Shown here: positions 8,425 to 11,331 of the stretch, in pieces | Layout of the letters: each line of letters begins with the position of its first letter | Numbering within the stretch: position 1 is the first letter of the stretch | Program-made: the position numbers and the translations under genes | DNA from: a virus | Lineage: Duplodnaviria; Heunggongvirae; Uroviricota; Caudoviricetes | DNA: 22,939 nucleotides | Direction: 5' to 3' (one strand) | Virus record (IMG/VR): IMGVR_UViG_2671181100_000006 | Location: 1 to 22,939 of that record | Notes under the pieces: generated by a model | Seen by the model: only the letters and a program-made list of their open reading frames with translations | What the model was told of the DNA's origin: nothing | Databases searched by the model: none

Positions 8425-9120
8425 CTATCCATGCCGTTTAAAGGACTGAGACTGGCTTATTAAAACCTTTCCATAGATATAGAATCTGTGTTCATTCTCT
8501 TTAGTTATATTCCATTCTCTATAACGAGGGTTATCAGAGATGACTAGCAGTTGGTCTGGTATCATCTGCAGGCGTTTAACATAAACTTTTCCATCAAAAC
8601 CAAAGACGTAAATCCCATCCCCATCGAACTCATTGATAGTTACGTCCACAAAGATTAGGTCGCCAGGCTCAATCGTTGAGGCCATGCTATCACCGCGAAC
8701 GTTGATGACCTTTACTCCAGATGGAGTCCTGCCACCAAACATTGCCAATGCCTGATCATTGCTGAACTCGATAGCATGAATGACATCTATGACGTCACTA
8801 CCGTGTATATGTCCTGCCCCGGCGCTTGCGCTCACATCAAGTACCTCGACTCTGTATACATCCACATCCTTTACGGGAGATGCATATTTTTCACTGTTTA
8901 TATGTACAGTAGTATCATTTTCGTCAGAGGTAAATAGGTCAGGTACACTTACGCTTAAAGCTTGAGCAAGTCGGTTAAGTGTCTGTTCTGAAAACTGCTT
9001 TTGTTTACCAGTTTCAAGCCTGGAAATATTGGCAGCATCAACGCCCACAGCTTCTGCAAGCTCTGCGATTTTAATGTTCTTCGCTAAGCGAAGTTGTCGT
9101 ATGCGAGATCCTATTTTCAT
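8425..9120 (-). CDS. cI: CI-like prophage repressor (XRE-type HTH plus S24 LexA-like autopeptidase domain)
   Basis: N-terminal HTH (IRQLRLAKNIKIAELAEAVGVDAANISRLETG) and C-terminal S24 motifs (GDSM...VKRL). Divergent from cro across an operator-containing intergenic region. Confidence 0.85.
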   Translation of the reverse strand: MKIGSRIRQLRLAKNIKIAELAEAVGVDAANISRLETGKQKQFSEQTLNRLAQALSVSVPDLFTSDENDTTVHINSEKYASPVKDVDVYRVEVLDVSASAGAGHIHGSDVIDVIHAIEFSNDQALAMFGGRTPSGVKVINVRGDSMASTIEPGDLIFVDVTINEFDGDGIYVFGFDGKVYVKRLQMIPDQLLVISDNPRYREWNITKENEHRFYIYGKVLISQSQSFKRHG

Positions 9121-9141
9121 TCACTCATTACATGTTGTTTT

Positions 9142-9202
9142 TGCGTTTCGTGCAAAGCAACTTGCGCAATTCGCTAGCGTGGAATAACATGCGTAATACG
9201 CA
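9142..9202. promoter_or_regulatory. Candidate tripartite right operator (OR) with divergent pRM/pR region
   Basis: Three GCG-N5-(C/T)GC palindromes: TGCGtttcgTGCA (9142-9154), TGCGcaattCGCT (9163-9175) and TGCGtaataCGCA (9190-9202), between divergent cI and cro starts. Possible pR -35 TTGCGC / -10 TAACAT with 17-bp spacing. Confidence 0.5.
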
Positions 9203-9217
9203 AAAATAGGAGGCGTT

Positions 9218-9460
9218 ATGCAATCACCATTAAGAAAATTGCGAAAATCGCATGGCATGACCTTATTGCACGTTGCAACCGGGGTACAGGTAGATCCTGC
9301 AACGTTGAGCCGCATTGAAAGATGCGAGCAAGTCCCATCTGTCGAACTGGCGGAGAGATTAGCCAAGTTCTTTAGAGGAGAAATAAGCGAATTACACATT
9401 TTGTACCCAAGTCGCTATCAAACAGATGACGTACCAAGTGCAAATAATCGTACTGCTTAA
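9218..9460 (+). CDS. cro: Cro-like HTH transcriptional regulator
   Basis: 80-aa protein with XRE-type HTH (MTLLHVATGVQVDPATLSRIERCE). AGGAGG RBS. Divergent from the repressor. Confidence 0.75.
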   Translation: MQSPLRKLRKSHGMTLLHVATGVQVDPATLSRIERCEQVPSVELAERLAKFFRGEISELHILYPSRYQTDDVPSANNRTA

Positions 9461-9494
9461 GCGGTTATTCGATAACTACAAAAGGTAAATCAAG

Positions 9495-9956
9495 ATGGTA
9501 GAGCCAAACCTCAAAGAAGCCGTCAAAGCGATGTGCAAAGCATATCCAGGTGGGCGCGAAGCAATGGCTGGCGCACTGGGAATGACGGTGACGCAGTTTA
9601 ATAACAACCTTTACGAGAAAAACGGCTGTCGTTTCTTCGAAGTCAGCGAGCTGGAAGCGATGGAAGACATTTCCAACACGTCGTTACTGGCTGATTACTT
9701 CGCTCGCCGCCGTGGTGCTCTGCTGGTGGATGTTCCGCACCTGGAAGAGCTGGATCGCGTGGACTTGTTCAGCCGGGCAATGCGTACCTCTGCCGCCAGA
9801 GGACAGGTTGATCAGATTATCGAACAGGCACTTGAGGATGGGGTAATCGAAAGACATGAAGCTGAAGAAATCATGGTGCATCACCGCCGCCACTTGGCTG
9901 CGCGTGAAGAAGAGATTGCGGCAATTATCACGTTATTTGCACGCAAAAAGAAGTGA
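9495..9956 (+). CDS. CII-like / YdaT-like early regulatory protein (family assignment tentative)
   Basis: 153-aa ORF immediately downstream of cro, in the canonical cII position. Resemblance to prophage CII/YdaT-type proteins is from memory only. Confidence 0.45.
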   Translation: MVEPNLKEAVKAMCKAYPGGREAMAGALGMTVTQFNNNLYEKNGCRFFEVSELEAMEDISNTSLLADYFARRRGALLVDVPHLEELDRVDLFSRAMRTSAARGQVDQIIEQALEDGVIERHEAEEIMVHHRRHLAAREEEIAAIITLFARKKK

Positions 9957-10193
9957 CGCCAGCGAGTTGCAGCTCCTGGCGTCGTGGCGTGTCGTTATCA
10001 GTGGAGATTACTAACGCATGAACAGTTTATCAACACAATACCGCAGGTCGCAACTTGTAGCGCGGCCAGTTCCTGGTGGAGCAGGACCGGTGCAGTTCGT
10101 GTATGGGGTAAGAGTACCAGGCGGTTTCGAACCTGTCTGCTACCAGTTTGCTCAGTGGGTGGTAGGGGACTTTAACGGCCAGGCGGAGAAAGT

Positions 10194-10373
10194 ATGCGAG
10201 AGCTCAACCGATGGTTCAGAGATCACTACGGCGTCCCGGTCAGGGTCATACGCTGGGAGCCCCAGACACAGCGCGTTATATACCTGCGTAAAGGGTACGA
10301 GCATGAATGCTTTAGCCCCCTTGAGCAGTTCAGACGTAAATTCAGAGAAATAAAGGACGATCATGAGCACTAA
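10194..10373 (+). CDS. Small hypothetical protein (59 aa), not on the ORF track
   Basis: My own translation: MRELNRWFRDHYGVPVRVIRWEPQTQRVIYLRKGYEHECFSPLEQFRRKFREIKDDHEH. GGAGAA RBS; G/C-rich third codon positions; stop overlaps the start of the O-like gene. It overlaps the track ORF 10018-10353 in another frame, and only one of the two is likely real. Confidence 0.35.
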   Translation: MRELNRWFRDHYGVPVRVIRWEPQTQRVIYLRKGYEHECFSPLEQFRRKFREIKDDHEH

Positions 10374-11331
10374 ATTAACAGGATACGTCTGGGACGCTTG
10401 CGCATCTTCGGGGATGAAACTATCCAGCGTGGCAATCATGGCGCGCCTGGCTGACTTCAGCAACGATGAGGGTGTTTGCTGGCCTTCTATCGCGACCATA
10501 TCCCGTCAGATTGGCGCTGGTGAAAGTACTGTCAGAACGGCGATAACTGCGCTTGAGAAAGAGGGATGGCTCACCCGTACGCAACGCCGCAATGGCAACC
10601 GTAATGCATCGAACGTCTACCAGCTCAACGTTTCCAAACTACAGAAAGCGGCATTTTCTCACCTGTCAGTTTCTGACACGTCAAAATCTGACACATCAAA
10701 ATCTGAACCGTCAAAATCTGATGCGTCAAAAATTGACCCCTCAAAATTTGAGGCGTCGGAATCCACCAAAAAAACCAGTTTTGACCCGTCAGAATCTGGG
10801 GGGGATCCGTCAGTAAAATCAACTACTGATCCATCAGATATAAATCCTTCTTGTCCGGACGCTTCGCAACCGGACGAACAGGGCTCTGCTGATGAATTTC
10901 TGTCACGACATCCTGACGCGGTGGTGTACAGCGCTGCAAAGCGGCAGTGGGGCAGCCAGGACGATTTAACCTGCGCCCAGTTCATTTGGGGAAAAATTAT
11001 CAGCATGTACGAACTGGCTGCTGAAAGTGATGGTGAGGTAGTTCGCCCTAAAGAACCAAACTGGACCGCATGGGCGAATGAGGTTCGCCTGATGGTGATG
11101 CAGGACGGGAGAACCCATAAGCAAATTTGCTCACTGTTCAAGCGCGCCAACAAAGATTCGTTCTGGTGTAAAAACGTACTCAGCCCGTCGAAGCTTCGGG
11201 AAAAATGGGATGAGCTGTCGTTAAAACTATCTGCTCCACTCAATAGCTCCCGCCAGGAGTCGTCCATTTCGCGAGCCAGCTTCGATGGGGTTGATTACTC
11301 ATTGCCAGAAAACTCGGGGTTCCGCACATGA
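10363..11331 (+). CDS. Replication initiator (lambda O-like) with N-terminal winged-helix DNA-binding domain and internal origin iterons
   Basis: N-terminal HTH-like region (SVAIMARLADFSNDEGVCWPSIATISRQIGAGESTVRTAITALEKEGWL). Low-complexity linker encoded by tandem 15-bp DNA repeats. Position after cII matches O. Confidence 0.65.
   Translation: MSTKLTGYVWDACASSGMKLSSVAIMARLADFSNDEGVCWPSIATISRQIGAGESTVRTAITALEKEGWLTRTQRRNGNRNASNVYQLNVSKLQKAAFSHLSVSDTSKSDTSKSEPSKSDASKIDPSKFEASESTKKTSFDPSESGGDPSVKSTTDPSDINPSCPDASQPDEQGSADEFLSRHPDAVVYSAAKRQWGSQDDLTCAQFIWGKIISMYELAAESDGEVVRPKEPNWTAWANEVRLMVMQDGRTHKQICSLFKRANKDSFWCKNVLSPSKLREKWDELSLKLSAPLNSSRQESSISRASFDGVDYSLPENSGFRT
10666..10755 (+). repeat. Putative replication origin: six tandem ~15-bp iterons (TCAAAATCTGAnnnn) followed by an A/T-rich tract, embedded in the initiator ORF
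   Basis: Units read directly: tcagtttctgacacg / tcaaaatctgacaca / tcaaaatctgaaccg / tcaaaatctgatgcg / tcaaaaattgacccc / tcaaaatttgaggcg, then caccaaaaaaaccagtttt. Same layout as ori-lambda inside gene O. Confidence 0.6.

Follow-up and report, generated by a model that had tools for sequence, protein, structure and literature searches.

The window, a stretch of 22,939 nucleotides (nt) covering positions 1 to 22,939 of the viral IMG/VR record IMGVR_UViG_2671181100_000006 (Caudoviricetes), carries two overlapping open reading frames (ORFs) just 5′ of a replication initiator gene. The first, in frame 1, encodes 111 amino acids (aa) and is related to ymfM of prophage e14. The second, in frame 3, encodes a DUF4222 protein of 59 aa. 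Attention had been drawn to the pair in an earlier note, made from the sequence alone, which read it either as two short genes or as two parts joined by a frameshift; as that note had reported, ORFs starting with ATG were found at 10018-10353 in frame 1 and at 10194-10373 in the other frame. The following features were located in this region, all on the plus strand.

10003 to 10006, plus strand: Shine-Dalgarno (SD) sequence GGAG of the ymfM-like gene, at a long spacing of 11 nt 5′ of the ATG

10018 to 10353, plus strand: ymfM-like ORF, 111 aa, ATG start, frame 1; positional homologue of e14 ymfM (b1148) and SfII_40

10018 to 10191, plus strand: N-terminal domain of the ymfM-like protein, about 58 aa

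10173 to 10175, plus strand: TAA stop in frame 3, ending ORF 9984-10175, six codons 5′ of the DUF4222 start

10185 to 10188, plus strand: SD sequence GGAG of the DUF4222 gene, 5 nt 5′ of the ATG

10192 to 10350, plus strand: putative read-through tail of the ymfM-like ORF, 53 aa, Ser-rich, in the +1 frame of DUF4222

10194 to 10373, plus strand: DUF4222 gene, 59 aa, frame 3; product identical to RefSeq WP_004184738.1

10351 to 10353, plus strand: TAA stop of the ymfM-like frame, 9 nt 5′ of the initiator ATG and abutting the initiator SD

10354 to 10357, plus strand: SD sequence AGGA of the replication initiator gene, followed by 5 nt and the ATG

The frame-3 ORF appears to be a genuine, independently started small gene. 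Its product matched Pfam family PF13973 at 66.8 bits (cut-off 27; E=1.2e-18; profile positions 5-53 of 53) and phrog_1343 with E=1.4e-34. Both in length, being a full-length match of 59 aa, and in position, just 5′ of a prophage replication or antirepressor gene, it agrees with the DUF4222 family (PF13973; phrog_1343; WP_004184738.1, WP_001250269.1), hundreds of annotated members of which occur across Enterobacterales. Conservation begins at residue 1 and includes R6, G13, V18, R20 and P42. An in-frame stop was found 2-10 codons 5′ of the start in all lineages, and a purine-rich SD precedes the start in every lineage, though the SD sequence and the start codon themselves differ. Proportions of nonsynonymous and synonymous differences (pN/pS) were 0.05/0.785 between the window and e14 and 0.02-0.23/0.39-0.89 between other lineage pairs. 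The better ribosome-binding site and the G/C-rich third codon positions that the earlier note had ascribed to this ORF were both confirmed: GGAG lies 5 nt from the ATG, against 11 nt for frame 1, and the guanine plus cytosine (GC) content by codon position in the overlap (0.57/0.38/0.62 in frame 3) is gene-like, with 0.64/0.38/0.55 in the ymfL-like neighbour. The stop does overlap the initiator start, as had also been stated (stop 10371-10373, start 10363; ATGAGCACTAA), the overlap amounting to 11 nt. An AlphaFold2 model (predicted local distance difference test, pLDDT, 83) gave a small SH3/Tudor-like beta-barrel with a C-terminal helix, which resembles generic SH3, Tudor, KOW and DUF1653 barrels and from which no functional conclusion was drawn.

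Some further observations were made on this gene. The DUF4222 start codon is ATG in the window type, TTG in e14/SfII (L002:1759) and GTG in the ST64B/Stx type (L100:1501). In one metagenome contig (L257), an Ile codon stands at the start position and the SD is kept. The last 5-16 residues of the protein, of which versions of 59, 61 or 70 aa occur, are set by whichever gene comes next, and a recombination boundary between the ymfM/DUF4222 module and alternative replication modules was placed at the frame-1 stop and SD, around window position 10354 (L045, L049, L253). On the minus strand, an antisense ORF of 115 aa (10152-10499) covers DUF4222 and the initiator start. Because almost every DUF4222 gene, whatever its clade, lacks stops in the in-register antisense frame (83/87, 26/27 and 30/37), this ORF was rejected as a gene and classified as a generic shadow ORF.

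The product of frame 1 matched phrog_1170 over its full length (E=3.2e-35; residues 1-111 on profile positions 1-112). Full-length homologues measure 111-115 aa, and the GTGGAGA at the SD of the gene is invariant across lineages. Within the product, the N-terminal domain appears to be the sole part under amino-acid selection. Its pN/pS between the window and e14 was 0.26/0.60, and following alignment of 23 full-length homologues, 27 of the 31 invariant columns were found within residues 1-55, the N-terminal domain being almost invariant and the tail variable. The N-terminal 58 aa matched phrog_20047, a family of 63-aa proteins, with E=7.6e-23, and a tblastn search using the N-terminal part of frame 1 yielded 41 phage records, down to 33% identity. 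Pfam searches with this domain and with its stand-alone homologues gave no match, even when E values up to 1 were allowed; NCBIfam gave none for the ymfM-like or the DUF4222 product, and sequence searches of the PDB returned nothing.

Stand-alone homologues of the N-terminal domain, 59-70 aa in length, were found in Providencia, Hafnia, Citrobacter, Morganella, Erwinia and others. They follow a cII-like gene, the same place as that of the window gene, and those of Providencia phage PSTRCR_117lys (QQK88380.1, 63 aa) and Hafnia phage yong2 (QXN68763.1, 59 aa) share the motifs PV.GG ... Y..[RK]V ... F.[EQK]W[AV]VG[DE]F with the window domain. Unlike the window ORF, these homologues end 5-15 residues past WAVGDF without a tail and are followed by rha, by an O gene or by DUF4222 with a 4-nt overlap. 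In PSTRCR_117lys, the domain constitutes the 63-aa gene directly 5′ of the O gene, and no DUF4222 is present. In Hafnia yong2, Citrobacter phiNP and prophages of Erwinia, Scandinavium, Mixta, Izhakiella and K. spallanzanii, an N-domain gene of 59-70 aa is followed by rha/antirepressor and then by DUF4222, the rha gene parting the two by about 700 nt in some phages. In Morganella prophages, the N-domain gene (63 aa) has its stop exactly on the DUF4222 start. Since the N-terminal domain and DUF4222 are found apart in other phages, they are separate modules.

Past residue ~58, the frame-1 product is Ser-rich (13 Ser in 53 residues, 25% serine), in agreement with the low complexity that the earlier note had seen in this ORF. 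The amino-acid sequence of the overlap appears to be dictated by DUF4222 alone, with the sequence of the tail drifting freely. Against e14, the tail gave a pN of 0.24 and a pS of 0.07, values indistinguishable from those of the +2 control frame of the overlap (pN 0.24, pS 0.055), and its GC content by codon position (0.38/0.62/0.57) is atypical. Synonymous divergence of DUF4222 in the overlap (0.785) was not below that of the single-coding flanks (0.60-0.70), and the tail therefore imposes no detectable constraint. Lowered synonymous divergence together with amino-acid constraint in both frames, as expected of dual coding, was not observed in the overlap. Instead, frame 3 only was conserved and synonymous sites were saturated, the outcome that the earlier note had named as speaking against its own view of ambiguous coding. 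Structure prediction gave the tail a pLDDT of 31-36 and no secondary structure; the AlphaFold2 model of the 111-aa protein was of low confidence (mean pLDDT 42) and served only for the missing predicted structure of the tail.

In this same frame, stop codons appear to be selected against. The loci compared were gathered with DUF4222 queries only, so that no ascertainment bias on frame 1 was introduced. The +1 frame was stop-free in 87/87 unique sequences of the 'RWEP' clade of DUF4222, which takes in the window/Klebsiella, e14/SfII, L068, Raoultella, ST64B and Stx-phage types, and was likewise open in Pantoea AH07; in every one of these cases, it is in phase with an upstream MNSL start. Among Morganella-like sequences it was open in 0/27 and among phiNP-like sequences in 4/37, with a mean of 2.2-3.0 stops. 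Given the DUF4222 protein and random synonymous codons, the probability of an open +1 frame by chance was 0.018-0.076 per lineage. Synonymous sites between lineages are saturated (pS 0.68-0.89), and codon choice between lineages is therefore effectively independent. A purine at position 3 of a T-middle codon followed by A would create TGA or TAA in the +1 frame; DUF4222 codons in this context carried a pyrimidine in 304/304 instances, while those before C or T carried a purine in 42%, and codons 16 and 19 covary with the next base. Using Fitch counts on a neighbour-joining tree, transitions and transversions were 15:0 at stop-prone four-fold sites and 41:51 at 13 safe four-fold sites (Fisher p=2.6e-5). 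Both frames are thus open across diverged relatives beyond chance, as expected of an overprinted pair.

At the 3′ end of the tail, the position of the stop is itself a regular feature. In 89 loci, the frame-1 stop and the ATG that follows were separated by exactly 9 nt, and the stop abuts the SD of the downstream gene, which is one of three unrelated genes with products beginning with MSTKLTG (the window initiator), MSLLMPS or MSQIFEI. The gap to the next gene is 3 nt in Pantoea AH07, and in 75 loci of the ST64B/Stx type there is no stop and the frame runs on into the antirepressor ORF. The upstream ORF ends a few nt from the downstream SD and start, which is the arrangement of a coupled junction. 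In the window lineage, the long tail would be due to the absence of a stop at the natural end of the first gene: ribosomes that have passed the N-terminal domain would read 53 more codons in the +1 frame of DUF4222 and end at TAA 10351-10353, which lies 9 nt from the initiator ATG. Selection may act to keep ribosomes translating as far as the next gene's start, the tail peptide itself not being its target, and the outcome would be termination-reinitiation coupling of the replication (or antirepressor) gene, protection of the mRNA, or both. Because the stop stands 9 nt before unrelated genes and the frame is fused to the next ORF in 75 loci, ribosome run-through is favoured over the peptide; we infer that the read-through is selected for coupling or message protection, and our best guess for the 9-nt stop is translational coupling. 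The region may be a clean natural example of an ORF segment selected to stay open while its peptide is free to drift.

Deposited annotations of some relatives run through the same overlap. Sb41 of ST64B (L100:1358-2515) is annotated as a single ORF of 385 aa across DUF4222 in the other frame. In the ST64B/Stx type, the N-terminal domain of the MNSL ORF is unrecognisable, and the ORF is open through DUF4222 and fused in frame to the antirepressor ORF. The 'Ash family protein' of Hafnia yong2 (L007:2996-3679), a long deposited ORF, also crosses DUF4222 in the other frame.

It is highly probable that the region holds two independently initiated genes that overlap out of frame in the early-right operon of a lambdoid (e14/SfII-like) prophage, with the tail of the first selected to stay open. 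In gene 1 (10018-10353), the functional part would be the N-terminal domain of about 58 aa; gene 2 (10194-10373), DUF4222 with its own SD and ATG, would lie almost wholly inside the gene 1 tail. The proposal of two short genes is thereby upheld in essence, both products being independent small proteins elsewhere, and is amended in that, in this lineage, the first gene reads 53 codons through the second. A comparable case is Rz/Rz1 of lambda, an embedded out-of-frame phage gene pair of which both products are conserved and functional. There, as in the window, one gene encloses a smaller one that is read in the +1 register from an SD and start of its own, and relatives keep both frames open; unlike in Rz/Rz1, the overlapped part of the outer gene of the window shows stop avoidance only and no amino-acid constraint.

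Several points weigh against a tail selected to stay open for passing ribosomes. Translation of DUF4222 already ends on the initiator start, and coupling through frame 1 may be redundant. In some lineages, the N-terminal domain is poorly conserved with the ORF still open: hidden Markov model scores were 19-28 in L068-type loci, and in ST64B-type loci the domain could not be detected at all, the pN/pS ratio there being 0.4-0.7. The tail may be functional under weak constraint, the ratio of nonsynonymous to synonymous substitution rates in the overlapped frame being confounded by the other frame. The stop-avoidance test rests on about four stop-prone sites, and the parsimony tree used for it was built from 159 nt of recombining phage DNA. 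In two lineages outside the clade (L250-252 and L191), stops are absent from the +1 frame by chance, no ymfM start being in phase with it. Finally, a literature search retrieved no ribosome-profiling paper mentioning ymfM.

The last of the lineages named would fit a different origin of the tail, in which only DUF4222 matters in the overlap and the tail is accidental read-through, produced when a rearrangement put DUF4222 behind a first gene without a stop and open since then by ancestry and chance, without selection. Such an origin agrees with a tail that is without amino-acid constraint and predicted to be disordered, with the end of stand-alone homologues at 59-65 aa, with the Morganella-type loci in which the gene stops at the DUF4222 start, with the +1 frames open by chance in L250-252 and L191, and with the fact that the Prokaryotic Genome Annotation Pipeline (PGAP) ignores the long ORF. 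It is nonetheless improbable, as every lineage is open at a chance of 2-8% each with codon choice made effectively independent by saturated synonymous sites. No stop-creating transversion was counted, against 51 transversions at comparable sites; the covariation of codons 16 and 19 with the following base is context-dependent, and the stop is fixed 9 nt before three different downstream genes. True dual coding, in which the Ser/Thr-rich disordered tail would be a functional, loosely constrained part of YmfM (division inhibition, stability or localisation) from which stops are excluded for that reason, appears doubtful. Stop avoidance in the tail frame would follow from it as well, and nearly all database homologues are full-length products of 111-115 aa; moreover, the sole functional experiments used the full 112-aa e14 ORF (bioRxiv 10.1101/2020.11.19.390815). 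Nearly invariant columns do occur in the tail (C60, E61, T64, G66, S75, G80, S81, L87 and C90), but these lie over codons that are conserved in DUF4222. The tail has the same pN/pS as the +2 control frame, the synonymous divergence of DUF4222 is not depressed, tail-less homologues exist, and the 'tail' of the ST64B/Stx type simply runs on into the antirepressor ORF, as would be expected of ribosome transit more than of a specific peptide.

Both forms of frameshift suggested in the earlier note were given up. A programmed -1 ribosomal frameshift, by which the N-terminal frame-1 part and the DUF4222 frame would yield a fusion protein, is very improbable. The step from frame 1 to frame 3 is indeed a -1 shift, and one phased X_XXY_YYZ heptamer is present (A_AAG_GGT, 10290-10296); this heptamer is not conserved, however, codon 33 being AAA, GAA or AAG and codon 34 GGG, GGC or GAC across lineages. 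Apart from one C5 run it was the only candidate slip signal; no slippery heptamer was found between the frame-3 stop (10173-10175) and 10194, and Rfam gave no frameshift element in 9800-10500. In every lineage, a stop closes frame 3 at 2-10 codons 5′ of the DUF4222 start; DUF4222 retains an SD and a start codon of its own, with conservation beginning at residue 1, and the ymfM N-domain and DUF4222 genes occur apart, parted elsewhere by rha. Neither a conserved phased heptamer nor a downstream frame that lacks its own initiation or occurs only fused was thus observed. A few database proteins do mix both frames (P0020, P0025, P0028, P0030 and P0031), but these are singletons with several frame switches each, typical of indel errors; together with P0022, they were rejected as assembly indel artefacts. 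Programmed -1 frameshift sites are known from dnaX and from the lambda G/GT tail chaperone. As at these sites, two frames related by -1 lie in a phage operon; unlike at these sites, no slippery heptamer is conserved in the window and the target frame is not open upstream, and the downstream ORF has its own SD and start and is a separate gene elsewhere. A mutational frameshift, by which an indel would have split one ancestral gene in the window strain and left a pseudogene, is scarcely credible. Two overlapping ORFs in different frames are a classic indel signature, but the E. coli locus identical to the window, Klebsiella phages, e14, SfII and Pantoea AH07 all show this two-frame layout, as do more than 85 unique sequences. 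The halves belong to separate families (phrog_20047; PF13973), and in-frame fusion was seen in no lineage.

By homology to e14 ymfM, the window locus probably encodes a division inhibitor. In e14, ymfM (b1148) occupies the same place between the ymfL/cII-like and replication genes; its product measures 112 aa, against 111 in the window, and shares the MNSL start, with 61% identity in the N-terminal domain and 55% overall. Both products match phrog_1170, and the +1 overlap with DUF4222 and the stop 9 nt before the next ATG are the same. The two differ in the DUF4222 start codon (ATG in the window, TTG in e14) and upstream of the gene, where the window has a 61-nt spacer with a hairpin and the ymfL stop of e14/SfII overlaps the ymfM start (ATGA).

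Mapping of SfiC took about 35 years. The e14 ymfM gene was reported as SfiC, an inhibitor of Z-ring formation that the SOS response induces, following expression of the cloned ymfM ORF, in its full 112-aa e14 form, and deletion of ymfM; the embedded DUF4222 ORF goes unmentioned in that paper (Ansari et al., bioRxiv 10.1101/2020.11.19.390815). The clone from the original library comprised ymfL(142-185), ymfM and ymfN(1-92) (PMC3614548), and a second screen mapped only the ymfN-ymfK region (PMC6206680). Going by the e14 coordinates (L002: ymfM 1580-1918, DUF4222 1759-1938), all filamentation constructs hold the DUF4222 SD, the TTG start and at least 53 of the 59 codons and therefore include the DUF4222 ORF; the ymfM deletion takes out both ymfM and DUF4222. 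The SfiC/ymfM literature is ambiguous in this respect, all filamentation clones carrying a DUF4222 ORF with its own SD, and the division-inhibitor phenotype cannot yet be assigned to one of the two overlapping products. We would suggest, tentatively and as the less likely case, that the 'YmfM/SfiC' phenotype stems wholly or partly from the embedded DUF4222, with its predicted Tudor/SH3-like barrel, or needs both products, the 111/112-aa ORF being mainly a 58-aa protein followed by a sequence-free 'translational bridge' kept open for ribosomes. Papers found in a literature search for DUF4222 merely list its name.

The window represents the immunity and early-right region of a lambdoid prophage of the e14/SfII type. 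Around the two overlapping genes, the following were located.

8425 to 9120, minus strand: cI-like repressor gene

9218 to 9460: cro-like gene

9495 to 9956: ymfL/CII-like gene (Pfam Phage_CP76)

9955 to 9983, plus strand: GC-rich hairpin without a U-tract, beginning inside the TGA of the ymfL/cII-like gene, in the 61-nt spacer before the ymfM-like gene

10363 to 11331, plus strand: replication initiator gene (HTH_36/O-like), assigned from the ORF list, a Pfam match and the E. coli annotation

Dam methylase and RusA genes lie downstream of the HTH_36 initiator. The position of the ymfM-like ORF, directly 3′ of ymfL (Phage_CP76) and 5′ of the replication module, is shared with e14, SfII and KpF5. 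Over positions 9900-10450, identity is 100% to an E. coli chromosome, 96-99% to Klebsiella phages and ~76% to SfII, SfIV and e14; the stretch matched 2,747 of 5,426 complete E. coli genomes, with roughly 3,500 matching places among complete genomes of this species. The locus is ordinary and widespread, and both gene families are already in the databases. In e14 of K-12, as in the E. coli locus identical to the window, RefSeq/PGAP calls only the 59-aa ORF ('DUF4222 domain-containing protein'), whereas the depositors of SfII and KpF5 annotated the long ORF alone. This clash between the 111-aa ORF of phage depositors and the DUF4222 of RefSeq/PGAP affects thousands of enterobacterial prophages; it appears to be resolved by both frames being used, for different reasons. 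Modestly new are a ymfM tail that appears to be selected open for something other than its sequence and an SfiC assignment unsettled between two overlapping products.

The hairpin at 9955-9983 consists of 8 base pairs, a bulge, 4 base pairs and a UGCA loop; the 76-nt stretch holding it folds at -28.9 kcal/mol (z -2.4). L253, L256, L008 and L051 retain the hairpin, which in L256 and L008 shows one compensatory change from A-U to G-C. In e14/SfII, with their ATGA overlap of ymfL and ymfM, it is missing. A promoter and terminator scan of 9100-10500 gave nothing relevant and no terminator call at the hairpin, and Rfam gave no match in 9800-10500. The hairpin may serve as a processing site, as an attenuator or as an inverted repeat bound by a protein.

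Within the initiator gene, window positions 10640-10790 contain tandem 'GTCAAAATCTGA(C/T)(A/G)C'-like repeats, which encode SKSDxSKS in the protein. These are presumably iterons forming an origin inside an O-like gene, as in lambda.

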